Shown here: piece after piece, positions 4,541-62,991 of the stretch
How the letters are laid out: each line of letters starts with the position of its first letter
Position numbering within the stretch: the first letter of the stretch is position 1
Source: Candidatus Amesbacteria bacterium GW2011_GWB1_47_19
GTDB lineage: Bacteria; Patescibacteriota; Microgenomatia; CAZETR01; Amesbacteraceae
DNA length: 64,000 nt
Assembly: GCA_001002325.1 (NCBI GenBank)
Contig: LCNZ01000005.1
Location: 18,274-82,273, forward strand
Reading direction: 5' to 3'
Notes under the pieces: model-generated
The model's input: only the letters and a program-made list of their open reading frames with translations
What the model was told of the DNA's origin: nothing
The model's database searches: none
Translations under genes and position numbers: made by a program

Positions 4541-5161
4541 TTAACCGGTGGAAGTTACCATGTAGCGCTCGGAAGAGAGCATGTATTTCGCACCGGATTT
4601 ACCTACCTGGCCCCAATAATAACCCCGCTTGGAAGCTCGGGTATTGGCAGCGGCCAGCCATTGACGGGACGATTCAACTTTCTGACGCAGTCCTGATATA
4701 ACGCTTTTAAGGTGAATGTAAAAGTTTTTATGATAAACACCCGGCGAAGAGGGCATTTGAGAGGTGGCTTTCTGGACCTCGGAGGCAAAATCTCCGGCGG
4801 TTTTGGCAAATGCCAAAATTTCCTGCTTCAGAAGCTGAATTTGCTGGCGGATTTCAGCCTGTTTTTGGCGGGAGTAAGTTTCCTGTTGCTGGCGGAGTCC
4901 TTCCAGCTGGCGGGTGAAAGCCGCTTCAGCCTGTTGTTTACCCCGGTTTTCAGCCTGTTCAATTTGTGACAGGGAAAGAGACTCATTGGGATTTAAAGTA
5001 CCTGATAAACCAAAAGACTGCGGGAGGTCGGCCGAAAAAGCCTGTTTTACCTGGGTGGTGGCGTCGGACGCGAAATCTTTGCCCAGATCGCGCAGAGCTT
5101 CCAGGAAGTTGTCGTGAACCGGACCCTGCCGGCGGGATTTATGGGGTGTATTTGAGGCCAT
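4541..5161 (-). CDS. hypothetical protein, Q-rich coiled coil
   Basis: 206 aa ORF with a long Q/E/R-rich heptad-like region. No family recognised. Confidence 0.4.
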   Translation of the reverse strand: MASNTPHKSRRQGPVHDNFLEALRDLGKDFASDATTQVKQAFSADLPQSFGLSGTLNPNESLSLSQIEQAENRGKQQAEAAFTRQLEGLRQQQETYSRQKQAEIRQQIQLLKQEILAFAKTAGDFASEVQKATSQMPSSPGVYHKNFYIHLKSVISGLRQKVESSRQWLAAANTRASKRGYYWGQVGKSGAKYMLSSERYMVTSTG

Positions 5162-9065: not shown

Positions 9066-9072
9066 TCTAATG

Positions 9073-9143
9073 AGCGGCTAAGGGGAATCGAACCCCTGTC
9101 ATCTCCTTGGCAAGGAGAAGTTCTACCATTGAACCATAGCCGC
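9073..9143 (-). tRNA. tRNA-Gly (anticodon GCC)
   Basis: Acceptor gcggcta/tagccgc, anticodon loop ttGCCaa, T-loop ttcgatt. Confidence 0.85.
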
Positions 9144-9147
9144 AGTG

Positions 9148-9220
9148 TGCCGAGAGCTGGAGTCGAACCAGCATCTGACGCTCTTCAGGCGCCCGCCGTA
9201 ACCACCTTGGCTATCTCGGC
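9148..9220 (-). tRNA. tRNA-Phe (anticodon GAA)
   Basis: Acceptor gccgaga/tctcggc, anticodon loop ctGAAga, T-arm gctggttcgactccagc. Confidence 0.85.
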
Positions 9221-9295
9221 GAAGGAATGAAATGACTGAGCTGAGATACAGCGTAAGTCGTATCTCGGCAAGGAACGAGCTTCAGTTGGATTTTA

Positions 9296-9478
9296 CTACA
9301 TCCGGGGAGGGCTTAAACAGTATCCAGTGCGGTCTCTCCCTTTTTTTAAAAATCTAAAATCTGTATTAAATAGTTTATCAACTTGAGCCGCGGATGGTCT
9401 AATACCTGTATTTTTTTCCACCAAATCTTGAAAATTAGATATTATTTCTTCCCGAAGTTGTTCTTGGGAGGTAGCCAT
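9296..9478 (-). CDS. hypothetical small ORF (60 aa)
   Basis: ORF only. Sits between tRNA-Phe and tRNA-Val. No similarity recognised. Confidence 0.2.
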   Translation of the reverse strand: MATSQEQLREEIISNFQDLVEKNTGIRPSAAQVDKLFNTDFRFLKKGRDRTGYCLSPPRM

Positions 9479-9523
9479 TTATTGATTGTATACCTGGGGT
9501 CAATAGTTGCTGACGCTGTCTGG

Positions 9524-9597
9524 TGGACGATGAGGGACTCGAACCCCCGACCCCCGCTGTGTAAAAGCGATGCTCTAACCAGCTGAGCTAATCGTCC
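9524..9597 (-). tRNA. tRNA-Val (anticodon TAC), CCA encoded
   Basis: Acceptor ggacgat/atcgtcc, anticodon loop ttTACac, T-arm gggggttcgagtccctc, followed by cca. Confidence 0.85.
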
Positions 9598-9616
9598 TGA
9601 GATTATATTACAGCTG

Positions 9617-9700
9617 TGGGCAAGAGAGGACTTGAACCTCCACTCCCTTGCGGGAACAGGCTCCTGAAGCCTGCGCGTCTGCCAGTTCCGCCACTTGCCC
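9617..9700 (-). tRNA. tRNA-Leu (anticodon CAG), type II
   Basis: Acceptor gggcaag/cttgccc, anticodon stem caggc/gcctg with loop ttCAGga, long variable arm, T-loop ttcaagt. Confidence 0.85.
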
Positions 9701-10194: not shown

Positions 10195-10278
10195 GCCGGG
10201 ATGCTGAAACTGGTAGACAGGCATGCTTGAGGGGCATGTGTCAGCAATGGCGTGGAGGTTCGAGTCCTCTTCCCGGCA
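10195..10278 (+). tRNA. tRNA-Leu (anticodon GAG), type II
   Basis: Acceptor gccggga/tcccggc, anticodon stem catgc/gcatg with loop ttGAGgg, long variable arm. Confidence 0.8.
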
Positions 10279-10282
10279 CACT

Positions 10283-10366
10283 GCCGGGGTGGCGAAATGG
10301 TAGACGCAAGGGCCTTAAGAGCCCTCGGTCCAAAAGACCATGCGAGTTCGAGTCTCGCCCCCGGCA
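10283..10366 (+). tRNA. tRNA-Leu (anticodon TAA), type II
   Basis: Acceptor gccgggg/ccccggc, anticodon stem agggc/gccct with loop ctTAAga, T-arm gcgagttcgagtctcgc. Confidence 0.85.
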
Positions 10367-10368
10367 CA

Positions 10369-10764
10369 ATGAGTTTTGAGTGTGTTAATTGTCATTACCT
10401 GGTACGGGAAGGTAAAAGATATGCCGGGACGGAAAACAGAAACCATTGCACGAAATGTTTGTGGTCATTGCATGCGGATTTAAGACCTGGTGACAGAAAA
10501 GCATTGTGCGGAGGAAAAATGAATCCCGCGGGGCTTACTTTTAAGCGGGTGAAAAAAGATAAGTACGGGAAAGAAAAGGTTGGAGAATTGATGCTAGTAC
10601 ACCAATGCGTAAAATGCCTAGAAGTATCAATAAACAGGATTGCGGCGGATGACGACCCGGTGGAAATAATGAATCTCGTAAATTCCGGTTTTTCTGTTGA
10701 AGGAATCAGTGTGCTGGATGAGGCTGACAGGTCGGAAGTACGCAGGCAGCTATTCGGGGTGTAA
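10369..10764 (+). CDS. RNHCP-domain zinc-ribbon protein
   Basis: Literal RNHCTKC signature plus additional CxxC pairs. The ATG lies 2 nt after tRNA-Leu(TAA). The ORF-track upstream extension from 10252 covers two tRNAs and is rejected. Confidence 0.6.
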   Translation: MSFECVNCHYLVREGKRYAGTENRNHCTKCLWSLHADLRPGDRKALCGGKMNPAGLTFKRVKKDKYGKEKVGELMLVHQCVKCLEVSINRIAADDDPVEIMNLVNSGFSVEGISVLDEADRSEVRRQLFGV

Positions 10765-10775
10765 AATTATAAACA

Positions 10776-10848
10776 CGGAGAGTGGCGCAGCTGGTAGCGC
10801 GCATCGTTTGGGACGATGAGGCCCCGGGTTCGAGTCCCGGCTCTCCGA
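10776..10848 (+). tRNA. tRNA-Pro (anticodon TGG)
   Basis: Acceptor cggagag/ctctccg, anticodon stem catcg/cgatg with loop ttTGGga, T-arm ccgggttcgagtcccgg. Confidence 0.85.
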
Positions 10849-10904
10849 CAAAGTTGAGGCGAAGTTTATTTTTAGCGTGAAATGGTTTAGGATATTGTCA
10901 GAGT

Positions 10905-31901: not shown

Positions 31902-31973
31902 GCCCCCGTAGCTCAACGGACAGAGTAAGTCCCTTCTAAGGACGAGATGGAGGTTCGATTCCTCCCGGGGGCA
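31902..31973 (+). tRNA. tRNA-Arg (anticodon TCT)
   Basis: Acceptor gcccccg/cgggggc, anticodon loop ctTCTaa, T-arm ggaggttcgattcctcc. Confidence 0.8.
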
Positions 31974-31978
31974 CTTGT

Positions 31979-32050
31979 GGGCCCGTAGCTCAGGGGTAGA
32001 GCAGTCGCCTCTTAAGCGAACGGTCGAAGGTTCGAATCCTTCCGGGCTCA
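31979..32050 (+). tRNA. tRNA-Lys (anticodon CTT)
   Basis: Acceptor gggcccg/cgggctc, anticodon loop ctCTTaa, T-arm gaaggttcgaatccttc. Confidence 0.8.
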
Positions 32051-32055
32051 CTTAA

Positions 32056-32126
32056 TGCGAGGTCGTCTAATGGTAGGACAGCAGACTTTGGATCTGCTTA
32101 TCTTGGTCCGAATCCAAGCCTCGCAG
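32056..32126 (+). tRNA. tRNA-Gln (anticodon TTG)
   Basis: U1:A72 acceptor tgcgagg/cctcgca, anticodon stem gcaga/tctgc with loop ctTTGga, T-arm cttggtccgaatccaag, discriminator G, followed by a T-run. Confidence 0.85.
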
Positions 32127-32180
32127 CTTTTTTATGATAGTGTTAGTGGACGATGTAAGAACCACCTATTGAGGTGTTAT

Positions 32181-53106: not shown

Positions 53107-54171
53107 GTGATAGCATTAACTCAAAAGCGGATGATAATTGAATTAATTGAACCCAGGAAAATAATTTCGTCGATGGGAAGCGATACGGTGGAGGTGAGGA
53201 TGGTGACTGCGGCCGGGGAATATACGGCATCCGTTCCGGCAGGAATCTCCGCCGGAAAATATGAGGTATCAAAAGTGTCTCCTGAGGAAGCGATAGTCCA
53301 AATAGATGAATTTAAGAAAGAATTAACAGGGAAGGAATTTAATCAGCTGGGGTTGGACGAAATATTAAATAAATCCAATTTGGGGGGAAATGCCAAACTG
53401 GCGGTGTCGGCGGCTTTCTGGAAATCGGAAGTCAGATCAAAACTCAGAAAATATCAAAAATTTCCTAAGCTGTTCACACTAATGTTTGAAGGAGGCAAAC
53501 ACGGAAATCCGGAAATTACCATACAGGAAATTGCAGTGGTGGAAGATACAGTAAATACAGCTGTGATTGATTTTCAGGTGCTGAAAAAATATCTTGAAAA
53601 TCAAGGGACGGAGACGACCGTGGGGGCTGAAGGGGCATTTTCTCCGAAAGACTGGGATAACGAACGAGTTTTACAAACCATAAGCGATGTGTTTGGAGAG
53701 AAAAAAATGGCTTTGGATATGGCCGGAAGTTTTATTCCCGATTCATTGAATATAAAGGAAATTATCGCAAAGTATCCGGTGTTTTCCGTGGAGGATCCGT
53801 TTGACGATGAAAGCTGGAATGAATGGAAAACATTTTATGAAGATTATAAAGACAAAATATTGATAGTAGGTGACGATTTGACAGCGACGAACCCAATCCG
53901 ATTGCAGATGGCAACCAATCCCAGAGTTATTAATGCAATGGTAATTAAGCCAAACCAGAACGGGACGATCAGCGGAACCATAGAAACTGCCAAAATAGCC
54001 AGAGAAAACGGTATAGCAACTGTGGTTTCCCACCGGGGTGAAGAGACGGATGATGACTGGCTGGTAGACCTGGCTTTAGAAATAGAAGCTGATTATGTGA
54101 AGTTCGGCGGATTGGAAAGAGGAGAACGGGTGGCAAAGTATAACAGACTCAGAGAATTGGGAATGACATAA
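53107..54171 (+). CDS. Enolase-like paralog (short, 354 aa) with conserved catalytic and metal residues
   Basis: DTVEVRMVTAAGEYTASVPAGIS...; ALDMAGSF; SVEDPFDDESW; IVGDDLTATN; VIKPNQNGTISGT; SHRGEETDD; VKFGG. Confidence 0.6.
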   Translation: MIALTQKRMIIELIEPRKIISSMGSDTVEVRMVTAAGEYTASVPAGISAGKYEVSKVSPEEAIVQIDEFKKELTGKEFNQLGLDEILNKSNLGGNAKLAVSAAFWKSEVRSKLRKYQKFPKLFTLMFEGGKHGNPEITIQEIAVVEDTVNTAVIDFQVLKKYLENQGTETTVGAEGAFSPKDWDNERVLQTISDVFGEKKMALDMAGSFIPDSLNIKEIIAKYPVFSVEDPFDDESWNEWKTFYEDYKDKILIVGDDLTATNPIRLQMATNPRVINAMVIKPNQNGTISGTIETAKIARENGIATVVSHRGEETDDDWLVDLALEIEADYVKFGGLERGERVAKYNRLRELGMT

Positions 54172-55431
54172 TCAACGAGTGGAAGAAATTTCGGTATCGA
54201 TGGAAAGGAAATGGTTGTACTTGGCTACTCTTTCTCCGCGAGCAGGCGCACCGAATTTGGCATAATCCGCTCCTACCCCGACGGCAAAGTCGGCAATAAA
54301 GGTGTCGTTGGTCTCTCCTGAACGGTGGGTAATGTTAATTTTCCATCCGGCGTCCCTGGCTTTTTTAACCGCTGCGATGGCCTCGGAAACGGTGCCGATT
54401 TGATTTGGTTTGATGATAGCCCCATTGCAGGCTTTTTCGGCGATAGCTTTGGAAATTTTGGTCAGGTTGGTAGCCAGCAAATCGTCGCCGACGATAGTGG
54501 TATTCTGGCCAAGCTCCGAAGTAATCTGAGTCCAACCTTTCCAGTCATTTTCGTGCAGAGGGTCTTCTAAAAGACGTAAATGGTATTGCTTGTTGAGATC
54601 CCGAAGATACTCTATGAATTCGGAAGTATCCATGGGAGAGCTGCGATCCTTGATGGTATATCGGCCATCCTTGTAAAAACTATCGGAAGCTACGTCCAAG
54701 CCAAGTTCCACGTCGATCTGGGGTTGTTTCTTGCACTCAATAATCGCCTCGCTTAATATTTCCAGTGCATCCAGATTGGTAAAAAGATTTGGAGCAAAAC
54801 CGCCTTCGTCACCGACGCTGTGAATCGCACCCCGACGGACAAGCAGATTTTTTATCGAATGGTAAATTTCAGCGCCGGTTTGGAGCATTACTGAGAATGT
54901 GGATTTACGGCTGGGGATGATATGGAACTCCTGAAAATCCAGATTACCGGCGCCATGCTTGCCGCCGTTGATCATATTGAAAACAGGAGTGGGGATAAAC
55001 AGCTGGGAGCTGTTTTCAGCCAGTGTGGCAATATAGCGATAAAGCGGAAGAGAAGCCGCCTGGGCCAGAACTTTTGTGACAGACATAGAGACTCCCAACA
55101 GGGAGTTAGCCCCGAAACGGCTCTTGCTGGGGGTACCGTCCAATTGATTTAATATGTTATCCACCTCTTTGACTGTGGAAAAATCCATGCCCACAAGCTT
55201 GGCAGCAATCTCCCGGTTTACGTGGCCCACTGCCTGCAGAACACCTTTTCCGAAATAACGATTGGGGTCGTTGTCGCGCAGTTCAGACGAGTCCGGTATA
55301 CCGATTGAGGATCCCGAAGGGACTGAAGAAACACCGTATTGGCCGGTGTCAAGTATGGCTATGACTTCAACCGTAGGAGTAGCCCGTGAATCCAGGATTT
55401 CTCTGGCGTAAAGCTGTTTAAGTTTGGCCAT
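54172..55431 (-). CDS. eno: Enolase
   Basis: ILDSRATPTVEV, IKPNQIGTVSEAI, SHRSGETNDTFIADFAV, full-length 419 aa. Confidence 0.92.
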   Translation of the reverse strand: MAKLKQLYAREILDSRATPTVEVIAILDTGQYGVSSVPSGSSIGIPDSSELRDNDPNRYFGKGVLQAVGHVNREIAAKLVGMDFSTVKEVDNILNQLDGTPSKSRFGANSLLGVSMSVTKVLAQAASLPLYRYIATLAENSSQLFIPTPVFNMINGGKHGAGNLDFQEFHIIPSRKSTFSVMLQTGAEIYHSIKNLLVRRGAIHSVGDEGGFAPNLFTNLDALEILSEAIIECKKQPQIDVELGLDVASDSFYKDGRYTIKDRSSPMDTSEFIEYLRDLNKQYHLRLLEDPLHENDWKGWTQITSELGQNTTIVGDDLLATNLTKISKAIAEKACNGAIIKPNQIGTVSEAIAAVKKARDAGWKINITHRSGETNDTFIADFAVGVGADYAKFGAPARGERVAKYNHFLSIDTEISSTR

Positions 55432-57745
55432 AAGGATGATTAGTTTTTAATGAAATAAGCTTTTCCTCACAATGGTATACGATTTCCCGGGTGCGGGCAA
55501 TAGCGTCAGGATTAACAGAGATGCTGGTAATACCCCAGGAAACGAGTTTTTCCACCAGATCCGGATACTGGGAGGGTGCCTGACCGCAAATACTGCAAAG
55601 AATTCCTCTTTTGACACAGGTTTTGATGGTTTTTTCTAATGCCCAGAGCACTGCAGGGTTCAGTTCACTGAACTGGGATGCGACTTCTGAGTTGTCACGG
55701 TCTATTCCCAGAATCAGCATGGTGAGGTCGTTACTGCCGATAGATACGCCGTCGATACCGACATCAATGAAGTCGTCCAGAAGGATGACGTTGGCCGGAA
55801 TTTCCACCATCATGTAAAGCTTGAAAGATGAAGATCGATAGAGACCGGCGGCAGCTACCAATTTTTTTACTTCGGTCAGTTCAAATACGGTAGATACGAA
55901 AGGTATCATCAAATGCAGATTTTTCAGGTCCATTTTGTGACGGACGAGTTTAATGGCTTCCAATTCCAAATTGAATACCTCCGGGGTTTTGATATAACGG
56001 AATGCTCCCCTGAAACCGAGCATAGGATTGGATTCTTCTGGTTCGAACTTCTCCCCTCCCTTAAGAGCCCGGTATTCGTTGGTTTTGAAATCTGTTGCCC
56101 GGTAAATCACAGGGCGGGGGTGGAAGGCTTTGCAAAAGATGCCGATGTCTTGAGCCAACTTATTTATAAATTGAAGGCTTTTACCCTCGGCGATGAGTTT
56201 TTTGGGATGAATGCCGATACCGGCTATCATGAATTCAGCCCGCAGGAGACCAACACCGTCGACGTGGATGGTGGAGATTTTTTCCGCCAGATCAGGCTCG
56301 GCCAAATTGACATAAATTTTGGTTGCGGTTTTTAATAAAGAATCCGGAGGCGGTTTTTTGGGATCGGACTGAGCTACCTGTATGGAAGATCGGGGTAATG
56401 AACCTTTGAAAACTTCCCCCGTGACTCCATTTACGGTGATAATCATACCTTCTTTAAGGAATTTGGTGGCCGTGGTGGTGCCGACTACACAGGGTACACC
56501 TAATTCCCGGGAAACGATGGCAGCATGGGAGGTTAGCCCACCCCGGTTGGTAACTATTGCCGAGGCCCGTTTCATGGCCGGGACAAAGTCTGGTGTGGTC
56601 ATATCGGTTACCAAAATGTCGCCTGTTTTGACTTTGTCCAAATGTTTGGTATCCGGAACCAGGCGGACTGGCCCCGAAGCTATTCCGGGGGATGCGGGGG
56701 CTCCGGTAAGTATTGATTTACCGAGATTTTTTGTCAGATCTGCGGGTACGGCGGACTGTTTTTCACCCAAAGTAGTAATGGGCCGGCTCTGGGTGATAAA
56801 CAAGCGATCCTTATATAAAGCCCATTCTATGTCCTGGGGAAAAAAATAATGATGATGGACCTTTTTTCCGATTTTGGCCAGTTCAATAATATATTTATCC
56901 GATAATTTCTGGTGTTTGCGACGGGAACGGGGAACCGGCAGTTGTTTGACACCCAAGGTTTTCCTGACTTCCATCACTTCCTGATTGCTGATTTGGCGCG
57001 AACGGATTTCCAGATCTGACTTTGAGACTTCATAATGATCGGGAGTAACCACACCCTGAACAATATAATCACCCAGGCCATAAATGGCTTCTATCACCAG
57101 AAGGTTTTTGTCCTGGGTTATGGGGTCGATTGTGAACATGACTCCCGAGACTTCTGATTGAACCATCTGCTGAACAGGAACGGCAATACCGACTTTGAAA
57201 TGGTCGAATTTTTTTTGGACCCGATAGAAAATGCTTCTTTCACCGAAAAGCGACAGCCAACACTCCTTAACTTTTAAAAGGACGTTGGAGTCTCCTGAAA
57301 TGTTGAGATAAGATTCCTGCTGACCGGCAAACGAAGCGTCCGGCAAATCCTCGGCGGTGGCAGATGAACGGACAGCCACGGGAATATTTGACCCCAGATT
57401 CCAGTGATCAATATTGAGTTGATGGTAAGCGGAAAATATTTCTGCGGAAACTGCCGGCGGCATTTCGGCGTGATCCAACAAATGCCTGACTTTTTGTGAA
57501 GCCTGTCTGAGCTGTGCCGGGTCCAGGACGTCGACGGAAGACAACAATTGATGGATTTGAGAGCGAAGGCGGTTGTGTTCCAGAAAATTGAAGTAGGCGT
57601 CGGCAATAACCACAAATCCCGGAGGCACGGGAATTCCGGCCGAGGTTAATTCTCCGAGATTGGCTCCTTTACCACCGGCTATATCGATGTCCTCTTTTCC
57701 CAACTGGTCAAACCAGCGGATATATTTATATTTTTTTAATTTCAT
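55418..57745 (-). CDS. ppsA: Phosphoenolpyruvate synthase (pyruvate, water dikinase)
   Basis: N-terminal ATP-grasp GGKGANLGEL, phospho-His domain TNRGGLTSHAAIVSRELGVPCVVG, C-terminal PEP-utilising TIM barrel. 775 aa. Confidence 0.8.
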   Translation of the reverse strand: MKLKKYKYIRWFDQLGKEDIDIAGGKGANLGELTSAGIPVPPGFVVIADAYFNFLEHNRLRSQIHQLLSSVDVLDPAQLRQASQKVRHLLDHAEMPPAVSAEIFSAYHQLNIDHWNLGSNIPVAVRSSATAEDLPDASFAGQQESYLNISGDSNVLLKVKECWLSLFGERSIFYRVQKKFDHFKVGIAVPVQQMVQSEVSGVMFTIDPITQDKNLLVIEAIYGLGDYIVQGVVTPDHYEVSKSDLEIRSRQISNQEVMEVRKTLGVKQLPVPRSRRKHQKLSDKYIIELAKIGKKVHHHYFFPQDIEWALYKDRLFITQSRPITTLGEKQSAVPADLTKNLGKSILTGAPASPGIASGPVRLVPDTKHLDKVKTGDILVTDMTTPDFVPAMKRASAIVTNRGGLTSHAAIVSRELGVPCVVGTTTATKFLKEGMIITVNGVTGEVFKGSLPRSSIQVAQSDPKKPPPDSLLKTATKIYVNLAEPDLAEKISTIHVDGVGLLRAEFMIAGIGIHPKKLIAEGKSLQFINKLAQDIGIFCKAFHPRPVIYRATDFKTNEYRALKGGEKFEPEESNPMLGFRGAFRYIKTPEVFNLELEAIKLVRHKMDLKNLHLMIPFVSTVFELTEVKKLVAAAGLYRSSSFKLYMMVEIPANVILLDDFIDVGIDGVSIGSNDLTMLILGIDRDNSEVASQFSELNPAVLWALEKTIKTCVKRGILCSICGQAPSQYPDLVEKLVSWGITSISVNPDAIARTREIVYHCEEKLISLKTNHPYGQT

Positions 57746-60122
57746 CCTTGTACCAGTCTACCCAAGGAATAGGTCCGGGGTCAATGTGATTTAACAGAGA
57801 TAAATAATAAGCTATAAAACTACCGGTCTGTACCAAATCCATCGACTCAAAGAAACGGGACGGCCCGACAGGTTTGAGGCTTATGACGGGTAAGTGATGG
57901 CGAGTTACGGCAGAAACTGTGACAGGCAGAGTGCGGTTAATTTCCGGGTTATAAAGATCGGAGCCGATAATAACAAAAACCAGGTTTTGGGGAAGAGTTG
58001 AAGGAAAAGTCAATCCTTCCAACAAGTGGTGGTTGGCTTCGGGAACGTCAAACAGAACCGCAAATGTCTTGGCGTTTTCATTTATCTGATTTTTAAATCC
58101 ATGCGCCGGCCCTTTGAGATGTTCTGAGGCAATGAGGACAGGGATGCGGCCGACCAGCTGTTTGGCCAGATTGAAATATGAGTCGGCTAATTCCTGACGT
58201 TTTTTCAGGAAATCGGGCAAATGGTTTAGGTCCTTTATGGGATGAATCAGGCGGCATCGGGAAAGCAATGTGATCAATGCCAGTATGCTGTAACCTAAAC
58301 CCATACGAGGCTGGGTGGAGGGGTTTGCATCAGTTGAAAAAACATAGTGAGGCAGATTTTGGTCGAGGGCAACTTCGGCCAACTTTCCTCCACTGGTAAG
58401 AATATAAATTTGGGCTCCTCGGCTACGGGCTTCGGCCAGTGAGGTGAGAGTCTCTTCGGTATTACCGGAGTAACTGGATATGACTACCAAAGAATTATTG
58501 TCGACAAAATTCGGTAAATGGTATTCAGTCGAAACTACGATAGGGATTTTCAGCTGCTGGCGCTCCAAACCGGCGATAATCCGCCCACCCAGGGCGGATC
58601 CACCCATTCCGGAAATAACGATGTTTTTGGACAGGAAACATGATTCGGGAATATACTGCTGTACCAGATCTCTGATAACCTGGGAACATTGGTCCGGAAA
58701 GGAGGTAATCGAATCACCTACCCTGAGAGAATCCTGGGACTCAAGTTCGGACAGAGATTGATAACCTGAAGTGGTTGTATTAACGGAGGGATTGATAAGA
58801 CCTTTCAGCCAGGCAAGATTTTCCTGGCCGAGTTTTTCACAGCGGGATTTATCGTTACTTTGAACGTACACTCTGAATTCGGGCGCATTACCGGATCCGC
58901 GGAATAACAGCCAATCATGATTGTTCAGTATTACTTTCAGACCGTCCGTGGCGTCAATATCATGAGAGGAATATTTTTCGCGAACCCGGTCGAGAATGTA
59001 GGCATATTTGGAAAAAGGACAGTCTGATTTTTCGCGGAAAAGATAGAATTTTGGGAGTGTGGCGACAGATCGGGAAAGACTGCCTCCCCGGTGTTTGAGG
59101 TAGTTGAGCATTTTTATAAGAGTAGAGCCTCCGTCCCGGCCGTAAAATATTTCACTGCTGATACCGCCGCCATTGGCTTCGAACCCGAATTTTGAACCAT
59201 AACGTTTCATGGCTTCTATAACAAATGTGGAGCCGACTTTGGTACGGTAAACCTTTTTACCCAGGGCATCCACTACGGAGCTGGTACTGACGGGGGTAAC
59301 AAAAGAAGCAGAGTCACTAACAGATGCCAATAAAGAGCAGGAGTAGTCACCGGGAATATAATTTCCCTGCTCGTCGATAAAAACAATGCGATCACCGTCA
59401 ACATCAAATCCCAACCCCAGATCCGCACCTTTGGCCAATATGAGACGTGAGGCCTCTAAAAAAGAGGTGGAAATTTCCGTGTCACGGGGAACAAAATGAG
59501 GCGCCTGGATATCACATTCTTCGGTAGTGATGAAATCAAGACCCAGATCCGAAAGCAGAGCAGGCATGATTTGCGATTGGGTACCATTGGCAGTGTCCAG
59601 GACAATTTTCCAGGAGGGATAAGGCGTGTCTGCCAAATTCTTTAACATATCCAGATACAAATCCCTGGCTGCGTCGGATCTTGTCACCACCGGAATGACC
59701 TGGTTATCAGATGCAGGTGCGTCGTGTTGTGTAAATAAATTCTCGATTTCAATTTCCTGTTTTTTGTTGACTTCCTCACCGTCAAATAAAAATTTAACCC
59801 CGTTTAAATTCGCGGTAATATGGCTGCCGGTAATCATAACCGCTCCACCCAGGTAACCGGTTTGCTTTAAAAAGTAGGTGAGGCAGGGTGTGGGAATCAC
59901 ACCCTGGTCGGATATTTCCCAACCACATGCTGATAAACCTCTGATAACGTCAGTTTTAATGCGGGGGCTGCTGTCGCGGGGATCCATAGCAACAGCGATT
60001 TGGCCGGTTTTCCCTTTGGAAATGAGCCATGAACCGTAGGTATATCCCAGGCGAAAACAGAATTGGGGAGTGAAAAGCTGATCTGCTGGGCCACGAACAC
60101 CGCTGGTACCGAAAAGTTTCAT
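57726..60122 (-). CDS. Fusion protein: alpha-D-phosphohexomutase (PMM/PGM) N-terminal half plus bifunctional phosphoglucose/phosphomannose isomerase (SIS) C-terminal half
   Basis: N-terminal GTSGVRG and the TGSHITANLNG phosphoserine loop. C-terminal GMGGSALGGR plus the PGI/PMI C-domain. Confidence 0.7.
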   Translation of the reverse strand: MKLFGTSGVRGPADQLFTPQFCFRLGYTYGSWLISKGKTGQIAVAMDPRDSSPRIKTDVIRGLSACGWEISDQGVIPTPCLTYFLKQTGYLGGAVMITGSHITANLNGVKFLFDGEEVNKKQEIEIENLFTQHDAPASDNQVIPVVTRSDAARDLYLDMLKNLADTPYPSWKIVLDTANGTQSQIMPALLSDLGLDFITTEECDIQAPHFVPRDTEISTSFLEASRLILAKGADLGLGFDVDGDRIVFIDEQGNYIPGDYSCSLLASVSDSASFVTPVSTSSVVDALGKKVYRTKVGSTFVIEAMKRYGSKFGFEANGGGISSEIFYGRDGGSTLIKMLNYLKHRGGSLSRSVATLPKFYLFREKSDCPFSKYAYILDRVREKYSSHDIDATDGLKVILNNHDWLLFRGSGNAPEFRVYVQSNDKSRCEKLGQENLAWLKGLINPSVNTTTSGYQSLSELESQDSLRVGDSITSFPDQCSQVIRDLVQQYIPESCFLSKNIVISGMGGSALGGRIIAGLERQQLKIPIVVSTEYHLPNFVDNNSLVVISSYSGNTEETLTSLAEARSRGAQIYILTSGGKLAEVALDQNLPHYVFSTDANPSTQPRMGLGYSILALITLLSRCRLIHPIKDLNHLPDFLKKRQELADSYFNLAKQLVGRIPVLIASEHLKGPAHGFKNQINENAKTFAVLFDVPEANHHLLEGLTFPSTLPQNLVFVIIGSDLYNPEINRTLPVTVSAVTRHHLPVISLKPVGPSRFFESMDLVQTGSFIAYYLSLLNHIDPGPIPWVDWYKDEIKKI

Positions 60123-60135
60123 AGGCAGGACAAAA

Positions 60136-60852
60136 TTATCCTACATTTTTTAGGACCCAAAGTTCAAGAGCAGAAGCCAAATCGAAAGGGGAAGAAGATG
60201 TTTTTTGGGCATAATCCAGAGACAACAAACGGTCATTGGCCATAATCAATCCTTCAAGAGTAAAGCGGTCAGACAGAGATTTTAGTGATGACAATTGCCA
60301 GGCCGGGAAATTTCCTGTACCGTCTTTGACCATAATGAGTTTGTGTAACTGACCGGCCAACAGGGAAAAAACCAATTCGGGAGGTGAAACCTCCAATGCT
60401 CTGTGCAATGCCGGAAGGTTTAATGTATCCAGAAAACGGAAAACATATTTGGGATACTCAAATTTTCGGATATGAGATGAAGGAAAATCCCTGATCTGGG
60501 AGGATACATCCTTCGGTTCCCAAATTGAAACGGGAGAGGAGAGATGTGAAAGGAAATATTTAATTAGTTCACTCTTTTCAGAAGAAGGGCGGCGGGAAAA
60601 GATTTCTTCGACAAATATAGCTTTTGAATCGTTAAAAAGCGAATCCGATTCAAAGGAAAATGTCAGGTCGGGAAGTGTCAGGGTATGACCTGACAGAGTA
60701 ATAAGATGTTTATCTTCGGCGACAGCTGTAGATTTAAGCTTGAGGAAAAGTTCCCTGGAAGACAATTGGTTGTCGCCGTGGATGATGATTAATCCGGGAG
60801 ACGGGTTACTCATATGATTTGACGGAAAGTGAGTAATAAAGCTGATCGACAA
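60136..60852 (-). CDS. DNA polymerase III delta subunit-like (tentative)
   Basis: LIIIHGDN N-terminal motif and helical C-terminal part. Short. Weak call. Confidence 0.3.
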   Translation of the reverse strand: MSISFITHFPSNHMSNPSPGLIIIHGDNQLSSRELFLKLKSTAVAEDKHLITLSGHTLTLPDLTFSFESDSLFNDSKAIFVEEIFSRRPSSEKSELIKYFLSHLSSPVSIWEPKDVSSQIRDFPSSHIRKFEYPKYVFRFLDTLNLPALHRALEVSPPELVFSLLAGQLHKLIMVKDGTGNFPAWQLSSLKSLSDRFTLEGLIMANDRLLSLDYAQKTSSSPFDLASALELWVLKNVG

Positions 60853-61527: not shown

Positions 61528-62991
61528 TCAGAGGGCAAGAGAAACATTGTCATTGACCTTGATCCCATGGGTAGCAATGAAACCGGCGTTGACTTCCAGA
61601 ACCTGGCTTACCGGGACATCAGGTAAAATAATCAGTGGCTGGCCAGAAGTAGCAGACGGCGGTAAAACGTCCGGAGTGAGTCCGACTACCCGGTCTCCGT
61701 TGATCCAGATAAAGTCCAGGGGGAAGATCATATCCTTCATCCAAAACTGATGCAGGCCGGGTTGGGGAAAATTAAAAAGCATACCGTGATCAGGCGAAAG
61801 ATTTTCCCGGTTTGACAAACCGACAGATCTTTCAATTTGAGAATCCGCAATCTCGACCTTTATCAGGGTGTTACCAATAGTTAACAGAGATGCGGTACCA
61901 GTTAACTGGCGGAAAAATCGGCGCAACCGGCCGAGGATATCTTTTCCTGATATTAAGGGAACCGGGGAAACACTGACGACTGGAGCAACAGAAGGAACCG
62001 GCTGGATTGACAGGAGAGGACTTCCCGGTGTTTTGGGGAAAGAGAATATGTCACGGTAAGATGCAGTAGGCTGACCCTGTTTATCCATCAAAGAAAATCC
62101 GGCAAAATCCCCGGCAGCGGCATTTAATAGAAAGGGAGTTATAGCTACAATATTCTTTTCGGTCCATACGGAGGTAAGAGCAGTTGAAAAAAATGACGGA
62201 TCGCCGGGTTTGCCGGTTTCGGTTATAAATACCGGTTTATCCGGGAAACCCAGAGATTTCAAGAAGGACAGCTCATAACGGTAGCTGGTGATGCCGTAGC
62301 GGGAAGTAGAAAATACTGAAGCGGTGTAACCGGGATTGGGATATGCATGAACCGAAAGGCCGTCTAGACTTCCGTACCAGTCAGGTTGAAAAGATGTAAG
62401 CAACCGGTAATATTTTAAGGCGTCAAGGGAAGTATGGTTTGACGGAGCGGACATATCAAGGCCGGAACTGAGAAGAAAATAATCCTCGGAACGGCTTTTG
62501 AAGATTGTATGAGCATCCAGGATAATATTTGAGTATTCCGGAGGAGATACATAACCCCCCCATTCAGCCGCATGATTAGGCTCGTTGAAGAGGATAATAT
62601 AGCGGTTTTTAACCGGCCAGGAAAGGTTATTCAGAAAGTTGGCAAAATCCAACAGATCAGAAGCGGCAGGTGTAACCCACCGGCCAGAACCGGCATAAGT
62701 AGCCAGACGAATAACCGGGATTACGTGCAAAGTCCGGCACTGATTAAAGAAGAGAGACCATTTTTCCAAATCCCGGTCGTCAATACGAATGGGAATTGTG
62801 ACATAGCCCCAATCTCCACCGGAACTGTTTACCAGCTTAGATGCTTCAACTATTTCAGAAGGCTCGAGAATATGAACCCCGATACGATTGTTGGGTACGG
62901 ATAACGGATTATATATTGCTGCCGAAGTGACCGGCCACAAAATTAACACAGAGATATAAACCACGAGAGATAAAAAAATTAATCGCAGCAT
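61528..62991 (-). CDS. Secreted glycoside hydrolase (clan GH-A TIM barrel) fused to C-terminal DUF192 domain
   Basis: ILFNEPNH (acid/base Glu) and FITETG (nucleophile Glu) motifs. C-terminal DHGMLFNF...FWMKDMIFPLDFIWI...VLEVNAGF matches DUF192. Confidence 0.6.
   Translation of the reverse strand: MLRLIFLSLVVYISVLILWPVTSAAIYNPLSVPNNRIGVHILEPSEIVEASKLVNSSGGDWGYVTIPIRIDDRDLEKWSLFFNQCRTLHVIPVIRLATYAGSGRWVTPAASDLLDFANFLNNLSWPVKNRYIILFNEPNHAAEWGGYVSPPEYSNIILDAHTIFKSRSEDYFLLSSGLDMSAPSNHTSLDALKYYRLLTSFQPDWYGSLDGLSVHAYPNPGYTASVFSTSRYGITSYRYELSFLKSLGFPDKPVFITETGKPGDPSFFSTALTSVWTEKNIVAITPFLLNAAAGDFAGFSLMDKQGQPTASYRDIFSFPKTPGSPLLSIQPVPSVAPVVSVSPVPLISGKDILGRLRRFFRQLTGTASLLTIGNTLIKVEIADSQIERSVGLSNRENLSPDHGMLFNFPQPGLHQFWMKDMIFPLDFIWINGDRVVGLTPDVLPPSATSGQPLIILPDVPVSQVLEVNAGFIATHGIKVNDNVSLAL

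Follow-up and report, generated by a model that had tools for sequence, protein, structure and literature searches.

The 64,000-nucleotide stretch of contig LCNZ01000005.1 from the groundwater 'candidate phylum' bacterium Candidatus Amesbacteria bacterium GW2011_GWB1_47_19 that we analysed (hereafter, the window) carries a gene in which a phosphohexomutase is joined to a phosphoglucose isomerase/phosphomannose isomerase (PGI/PMI)-family protein. The gene (57726..60122, minus strand) starts with ATG, encodes 798 amino acids (aa) and ends in a stop codon at 57726-57728; its single frame has no internal stop. Three parts, all on the minus strand, can be distinguished: a mutase module with the four-domain alpha-D-phosphohexomutase fold (aa 1-443, 58794..60122), delimited by Pfam domains I-III, an alignment to the archaeal structure 1wqa and a Foldseek match to 9du5; an inter-module linker (aa 444-463, NPSVNTTTSGYQSLSELESQ; 58734..58793), recognized from variability in the alignment, low model confidence and comparison with unfused gene pairs; and a double-SIS isomerase module of the PGI/PMI family (aa 464-798, 57729..58733), identified by the Pfam domains SIS and bact-PGI_C and by a profile match to 1tzb. 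All five Pfam domains exceed their gathering scores: PGM_PMM_I (aa 2-134, E 4e-26), PGM_PMM_II (156-253) and PGM_PMM_III (273-357) in the mutase half, and SIS (aa 498-578, score 27.8 with a cut-off of 25) and bact-PGI_C (651-794, E 8e-28, score 97.7 with a cut-off of 24.5) in the isomerase half. Domain IV of the mutase has no Pfam match; the 1wqa alignment nevertheless extends to residue 430. No paralogue of either half was found within the 64-kb window.

The fusion is a genuine, conserved protein. Full-length orthologues form around 47 clusters (90% identity) in Amesbacteria/Microgenomates, with 775-800 aa, 47-63% identity and the same architecture. Because the separate genes of related phyla overlap by a few bases, a one-base error could look like a fusion, and we considered whether a sequencing or assembly error had erased a stop codon or frameshift between two genes. 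That explanation is rejected and has next to no chance of being correct: at least 23 contigs from independent samples, projects and assemblers encode exactly this 798-aa product (among them ENA ERZ27254746 and, from a Candidatus Amesbacteria bin, NCBI GCA_001773795.1), the diverged clusters share the continuous architecture, and the open reading frame (ORF) is open in the Genome Taxonomy Database (GTDB) species representatives L010, L011, L012 and L015. An earlier note on this DNA had proposed one ORF joining a phosphohexomutase to a PGI/PMI isomerase, and the uninterrupted frame and its domains bear this out. The motifs that it listed are present (GTSGVRG, aa 5-11; TGSHITANLNG, aa 98-108, nucleotides 59799-59831; GMGGSALGGR, aa 505-514), and the fusion recurs in related genomes, where the note had suggested looking for it. 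The region at about 58750-58800, where it suspected a missed stop or frameshift, lies in the linker and is open here, in the contigs with the identical product and in the 31 fused orthologues (around 55% identity) that we aligned to assess conservation.

In that alignment, both halves are equally conserved: mean pairwise identity is 58% for the mutase and 54% for the isomerase, and invariant columns make up 16.6% and 17.0%, respectively. No column of the linker is invariant, its mean pairwise identity is 17%, and its length varies as well as its sequence. An AlphaFold model built from the orthologue alignment is confident within each module (mean predicted local distance difference test score (pLDDT) of 90.3) and predicts the linker to be disordered, with pLDDT below 50 at aa 446-455. 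Both modules are homologous to solved enzymes, the first to phosphomannomutase/phosphoglucomutase (PMM/PGM) and the second to PGI/PMI, and fold matches of the model have TM(target) values of 0.81-0.88. Among 1.84 billion representatives clustered at 50% identity, just one cluster (P0019) covers both halves; all other matches, down to about 205 bits, are single-module, so that no independent fusion was found in this set.

The catalytic residues of the mutase are intact. The four-domain architecture is supported by Pfam domains I-III, the 1wqa alignment and a whole-fold match to 9du5 and 1wqa. Across the orthologues, the phosphoserine loop TGSHITANLNG (59799..59831, minus strand, as are all motifs below; Ser100, His101, Ile102) is invariant at T98, G99, S100, H101, I102, L106, N107 and G108, and K110 is also invariant. 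The metal-binding loop DVDGDR (aa 240-245, 59388..59405; Asp240/242/244, Arg245) conforms to the superfamily pattern D-x-D-x-D-R and is invariant at D240, D242, G243, D244 and R245. The sugar-binding loop GFEANGG (aa 313-319, 59166..59186; Glu315, Asn317), which contains the conserved Glu of domain III and aligns with GGEENGG of 1wqa, is invariant at G313, F314, E315, N317, G318 and G319. In the phosphate-binding loop RGSGNAP (58881..58901), R408, S410, N412 and P414 are invariant; relative to the canonical domain IV loop R-x-S-G-T-E-P, the Arg, Ser, Gly and Pro are kept, whereas Thr is replaced by Asn and Glu by Ala. The phosphoserine loop likewise departs from the superfamily form T/S-x-S-H-N-P, keeping Ser100-His101 and replacing Asn-Pro with Ile-Thr.

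The earlier note was right that this loop differs from the canonical TASHNP: 1wqa reads ITASHNP at the position aligned with TGSHIT, and the changes of Asn to Ile and Pro to Thr are real. It had also marked the Asn-to-Ile change as worth checking; the variant proves to be widespread, and the idea of a notable lesion is not supported. All fused proteins carry [ST]GSH[IV]xxxLNG, and the stand-alone Patescibacteria mutases that we retrieved share it, except P0083 (SHN) and one other (SHL). Scanning GTDB genomes for the peptide pattern [GA][VIL]M[IV]TGSHI also retrieved 62 loci from Proteobacteria (Methylobacter, Devosia, Rhodobacter capsulatus, Shewanella and Marinobacter among them), whose mutases read TGSHIP.DRNG, DGDxDR, GFEANGG and RxSGNAP; one of these proteobacterial SHI-loop mutases matches the Brucella structure PDB 4hjh at E 4e-109. 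Given that the TGSHI loop is family-wide and present in proteobacterial relatives and in 4hjh, it is not a lesion, and we rejected the idea that Asn-to-Ile is an inactivating or unique substitution. The combination of SHI, FEANGG and SGNAP is the signature of a recognizable subfamily of working hexose-phosphate mutases, not damage. As a separate observation, the proteobacterial phosphohexomutases with TGSHIP.DRNG, GFEANGG and RxSGNAP constitute a large family (L026-L088, among them L080 from Rhodobacter capsulatus, L056 from Shewanella decolorationis and L031 from Methylophilus flavus). L056, the sole proteobacterial SHI-loop member scanned, reached the cut-off of no NCBIfam equivalog; the TGSHIP/GFEANGG/RxSGNAP subfamily seemingly lacks a curated name, and its structural representative is 4hjh.

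The catalytic residues of the isomerase half are conserved as well. Its profile matches 1tzb, the PGI/PMI of Pyrobaculum aerophilum, over the whole length of 1tzb (E 2e-24). The GMGGS phosphate-binding motif of the first SIS domain (58596..58610, G505-S509 invariant) aligns with SGMGGS of 1tzb, and the phosphate-binding PGI/PMI signature SSYSGNTEET (58449..58478; S549, S550, Y551, S552, G553, T555 and E557 invariant) aligns with SYSGNTIETL. Four residues of the P. aerophilum enzyme, Arg135, Glu203, His219 and Lys298, are reported to have catalytic or binding roles, with Glu203 as the catalytic base. Their counterparts are Arg606 (58305..58307), Glu682 in a NENAK motif (58077..58079), His699 (58026..58028) and Lys792 (57747..57749), so that these four residues, GMGGS and SYSGNTxET are all aligned and invariant. 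Further invariant positions surround them, and together the set comprises P605, R606, N678, E682, N683, K685, P694, E695, H698, H699 and K792.

The surroundings of the gene reveal where the fusion came from. Related loci share a conserved block that encodes, in order, RuvC, a DUF192 protein, a metallopeptidase-like protein, a holA-like protein, a variable slot, a ppsA-like protein, enolase and iPGM; the fusion occupies the variable slot. In the window, a gene that resembles DNA polymerase III delta (60136..60852, minus strand; assigned by synteny with the more distant genome L006) ends 13 nucleotides before the ATG of the fusion. Downstream lies a phosphoenolpyruvate synthase/PPDK-like (ppsA-like) gene of 775 aa (55418..57745, minus strand), the start of which overlaps the 3' end of the fusion by 20 nucleotides; an enolase gene of 419 aa (54172..55431, minus strand) in turn overlaps the ppsA-like gene by 14 nucleotides. 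Genes for a GH15 glucoamylase-like protein and a GT2 glycosyltransferase are located a few kilobases upstream of the fusion. In Shapirobacteria and other Microgenomates (L016, L020, L021, L023 and L025), the slot instead contains two genes, one for a mutase of 443-450 aa and, directly after it, one for a PGI/PMI of 357-375 aa, and in some loci the stop of one overlaps the start of the other (TGATGA in L021; 8 nucleotides in L025). The isomerase module and free PGI align at their N termini (DSLRVGDSI... in the module), and the linker falls where the unfused genes have their stop/start overlap. Because separate, abutting or overlapping genes fill the same operon slot in relatives, the gene arose when two neighbouring, translationally coupled genes in a conserved sugar-phosphate operon fused; a small indel in the overlap would merge the two frames. 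Several of the GTDB representative metagenome-assembled genomes used for comparison (L011-L014, L016-L018, L020, L023 and L025) are titled 'uncultured Gammaproteobacteria' or 'Pseudomonadales' despite having typical Patescibacteria operons, and look like mislabelled third-party assemblies.

Among relatives, the mutase part is labile. In several Amesbacteria lineages (L001-L005, L013 and L014), the orthologous gene is interrupted in the variable loop that connects domain I to domain II, and this break was seen in at least four independent samples. The first ORF (134-137 aa) retains the TGSHI loop with the catalytic Ser; the second (642-697 aa), which encodes domains II-IV and the isomerase, lies in the +1 frame and begins at an ATG that precedes the stop of the first by a few codons (4634-5041 and 5001-6974 in L001; 4610-5014 and 5001-6929 in L004). 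For domain I in these split lineages, the ratio of non-synonymous to synonymous substitution rates (dN/dS) is 0.06-0.08 at dS 0.64-1.2, and for domains II-IV and the isomerase it is 0.03-0.14 in the same pairs; all three parts are under purifying selection. As dN/dS is low in every part, the break does not mark a pseudogene; the enzyme either works in two pieces or is made by frameshifting. In further close relatives, some of them Amesbacteria bins too, the slot holds a PGI/PMI gene alone, directly after the holA-like gene (L007, 6001-7026; L008, 6001-7068; L009, 6001-7050; also L017 and L019), and no mutase remnant was found within 6 kb on either side. L006 has the mutase only, and a 136-aa ORF that follows it, considered as a possible PGI remnant, shows no similarity to PGI. 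In a quick neighbour-joining distance tree of the isomerase domain, without support values, the PGI-only, split and fused forms are interleaved, which hints that the mutase part was lost or split repeatedly.

Frame breaks after domain I, loci that lack the mutase and the interleaved tree, with the repeated loss that it suggests, are what would be seen if the isomerase alone were functional and the mutase were in decay, or kept a structural or regulatory role without catalysis, on the path to loss. We consider this quite improbable, because Ser100, His101, Lys110, Asp240/242/244, Arg245, Glu315, Arg408 and Ser410 are invariant in the aligned orthologues, the mutase half is at least as well conserved as the isomerase half, and domain I remains under strong constraint even in the split lineages. 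A more elaborate history, which we offer tentatively and regard as possible but doubtful, would run in Amesbacteria from neighbouring genes to a fusion and then, at another position in the protein, to re-fission into a working two-piece phosphohexomutase, with domain I (around 135 aa) made separately or rejoined by +1 ribosomal frameshifting at the conserved break; in the intact fusion, the tether would provide real kinetic coupling between isomerase and mutase.

Taken together, these observations point to a two-module enzyme, built from fused neighbours, that probably links the fructose-6-phosphate (Fru-6-P) pool with hexose-1-phosphates, a reading to which we give a probability of roughly 75%. 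The most likely, because most parsimonious, function is a pair of consecutive reversible steps, Fru-6-P <-> glucose-6-phosphate (Glc-6-P) and/or mannose-6-phosphate (Man-6-P) <-> hexose-1-phosphate. The C-terminal double-SIS module would carry out the first step with Glu682 as the base, together with His699, Lys792 and Arg606. The N-terminal module would then act as a phosphoserine (Ser100), Mg2+-dependent (Asp240/242/244) phosphohexomutase that interconverts hexose-6-phosphate and hexose-1-phosphate through a bisphosphate intermediate. In this way, the two modules would connect Fru-6-P of glycolysis/gluconeogenesis to hexose-1-phosphates that serve as nucleotide-sugar precursors or arise from glucan phosphorolysis; the tie to this metabolic trunk is suggested by the operon partners (ppsA-like, enolase and iPGM). 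Given the flexible linker of around 20 residues, the fusion most likely pays off by keeping the two modules co-expressed, close together and in fixed stoichiometry, and less likely by forming a sealed channel. What the analysis shows is the architecture, its conservation, its evolutionary origin and the integrity of the catalytic residues; the two activities, the sugar series (glucose and/or mannose), the direction of flux and any kinetic coupling are what we infer.

Several results weigh against this assignment. Of the NCBIfam models, archaeal GlmM (TIGR03990 Arch_GlmM) scores highest on the mutase half, at 313-316 bits, which is below its cut-off of 439. The PGI/PMI models (NF006425, NF006426 and TIGR02128) also stay under their cut-offs (203.5 versus 471, 200.6 versus 295 and 180.5 versus 213.9), and because both halves fall short of the equivalog thresholds, exact substrate assignments are not transferable. 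Thr291 of the P. aerophilum enzyme, a small residue that has been proposed to permit PMI activity on Man-6-P, aligns with an invariant Ile785 in the fusion. With the equivalogs under cut-off and Ile at the Thr291 position, a choice between the glucose and mannose series could not be made from sequence. Characterized bifunctional PGI/PMI enzymes come from Pyrobaculum aerophilum, Aeropyrum pernix and Thermoplasma acidophilum (Hansen et al. 2004, Swan et al. 2004, cited in PMC4720418), and DmPMI of Dehalococcoides, the one bacterial relative of this archaeal family tested so far, has PMI activity and no PGI activity (PMC4720418). Pointers to the sugar series therefore diverge, with DmPMI being PMI-only and 4hjh binding Glc-6-P yet modelling a PMM. 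In close relatives with PGI alone at the locus, the mutase step is dispensable or supplied from elsewhere. Finally, the AlphaFold model, in which the relative placement of the modules is not confident (predicted template modelling score (pTM) of 0.59) and the linker is disordered, supports no fixed inter-module interface or channel. The earlier note had Fru-6-P or Man-6-P channelled to hexose-1-phosphate; consecutive action remains the most parsimonious proposal, whereas channelling finds no confident interface. Its label 'archaeal-type' for the isomerase is apt in that the characterized members are archaeal, but for both halves the closest relatives, at 45-65% identity, are bacterial and come from Patescibacteria.

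The high rank of archaeal GlmM also bears on a different proposal, in which the modules do not act consecutively and the mutase uses glucosamine-6-phosphate (making UDP-GlcNAc for the cell wall, as GlmM-type enzymes do) or pentose phosphates (as a phosphopentomutase in the archaeal/Candidate Phyla Radiation (CPR) route from nucleoside salvage to RuBisCO). The Thermococcus phosphopentomutase 9ix8 is clearly related in sequence and structure (E 3e-38, 135 bits, TM(target) 0.87), and, as is well established, specificity in the alpha-D-phosphohexomutase superfamily cannot be read from sequence. We nevertheless judge another substrate to be unlikely. The GlmM score is well under its threshold; the PMM/PGM 1wqa and the PGM 9du5 score 216 and 210 bits, far above the phosphopentomutase; and the loops that define the subfamily match those of 4hjh, which binds Glc-6-P. 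Moreover, enzymes that act consecutively are expected to show what is seen here: conserved adjacency to a hexose-6-phosphate isomerase, translational coupling with it and, in the end, fusion to it.

Other features of the window were noted in passing. Abutting the 3' end of the canonical enolase gene is a second, shorter enolase-like gene on the plus strand (53107-54171; a 354-aa ORF, called as 346 aa). Its product shares 30% identity with the canonical enolase (E 2e-41), and IKPNQxGT and SHRxxETxD are among the C-terminal motifs that it retains; L008 has a comparable paralogue. At 61528-62991 (minus strand), a 487-aa protein with an N-terminal hydrophobic segment matches DUF192. We place this domain C-terminally by inference from the DUF192 protein of L001, which has only 137 aa; in most related loci examined, the DUF192 protein lies between RuvC and the metallopeptidase-like gene. 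Fifteen tRNA genes are found in the first half of the window (3282-32127), with tight clusters at 9072-9700, 10195-10849 and 31902-32127.

The database names of the fusion and its orthologues cover one half or none ('Bifunctional phosphomannomutase/phosphoglucomutase', 'SIS domain-containing protein' or 'hypothetical protein'), so pathway reconstructions can miss the PGI/PMI or the PGM step in CPR/Patescibacteria. As evidence of the Rosetta-stone type, the fusion indicates that in Patescibacteria one and the same hexose phosphate is the substrate of both the SHI-loop mutases and the PGI/PMI-like isomerases. The biochemical consequence of the fusion itself is small, and the separate, fused, re-split and deleted forms provide a natural series in which to study how multidomain enzymes tolerate fusion and fission.

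Among known systems, the closest solved relatives of the mutase half are the PMM/PGM of Pyrococcus horikoshii (PH0923, 1wqa; aligned over aa 2-430, E 6e-63) and the PGM of Thermococcus kodakarensis (9du5, E 6e-61). They have the same four-domain fold as the model (TM(target) 0.81-0.85, with 0.85 for 9du5; around 30% identity by Foldseek) and share the Ser-His, DxDxDR and ExNGG elements. These archaeal enzymes differ in that they are stand-alone proteins of around 455 aa with TASHNP and RASGTEP, whereas the fusion has TGSHIT, RGSGNAP and a C-terminal isomerase. The variant loops are instead those of 4hjh, a phosphoglucomutase/phosphomannomutase from Brucella melitensis that was crystallized with Glc-6-P and carries TGSHIPDDRNG, GFEANGG and RASGNAPE; it is proteobacterial, stand-alone and around 26% identical (Foldseek), with SHIP, DRNG rather than LNG, and no isomerase. 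This structure is a stand-in for ManBcore (BMEII0899), a genetically validated phosphomannomutase whose mutants are rough (PMC7762576). For the isomerase half, the P. aerophilum PGI/PMI (1tzb/1x9i) shares the double-SIS fold, GMGGS, SYSGNTxET and NENAK with the catalytic Glu; archaeal PGI/PMI enzymes differ in being stand-alone and in their length of around 300 aa, and the position of Thr291 in the P. aerophilum enzyme is Ile in the fusion. We found no description in the searchable literature of a PGM/PMM fused to PGI/PMI in CPR bacteria. The architecture is thus unreported, yet it is built from well-known enzyme families and is an ordinary kind of gene fusion. Precedents are the type II PMI-GDP-mannose pyrophosphorylases (AlgA/XanB) and the transaldolase-PGI fusions, which follow the same logic of a common hexose phosphate handled by one polypeptide and differ in the partner domains that they join.

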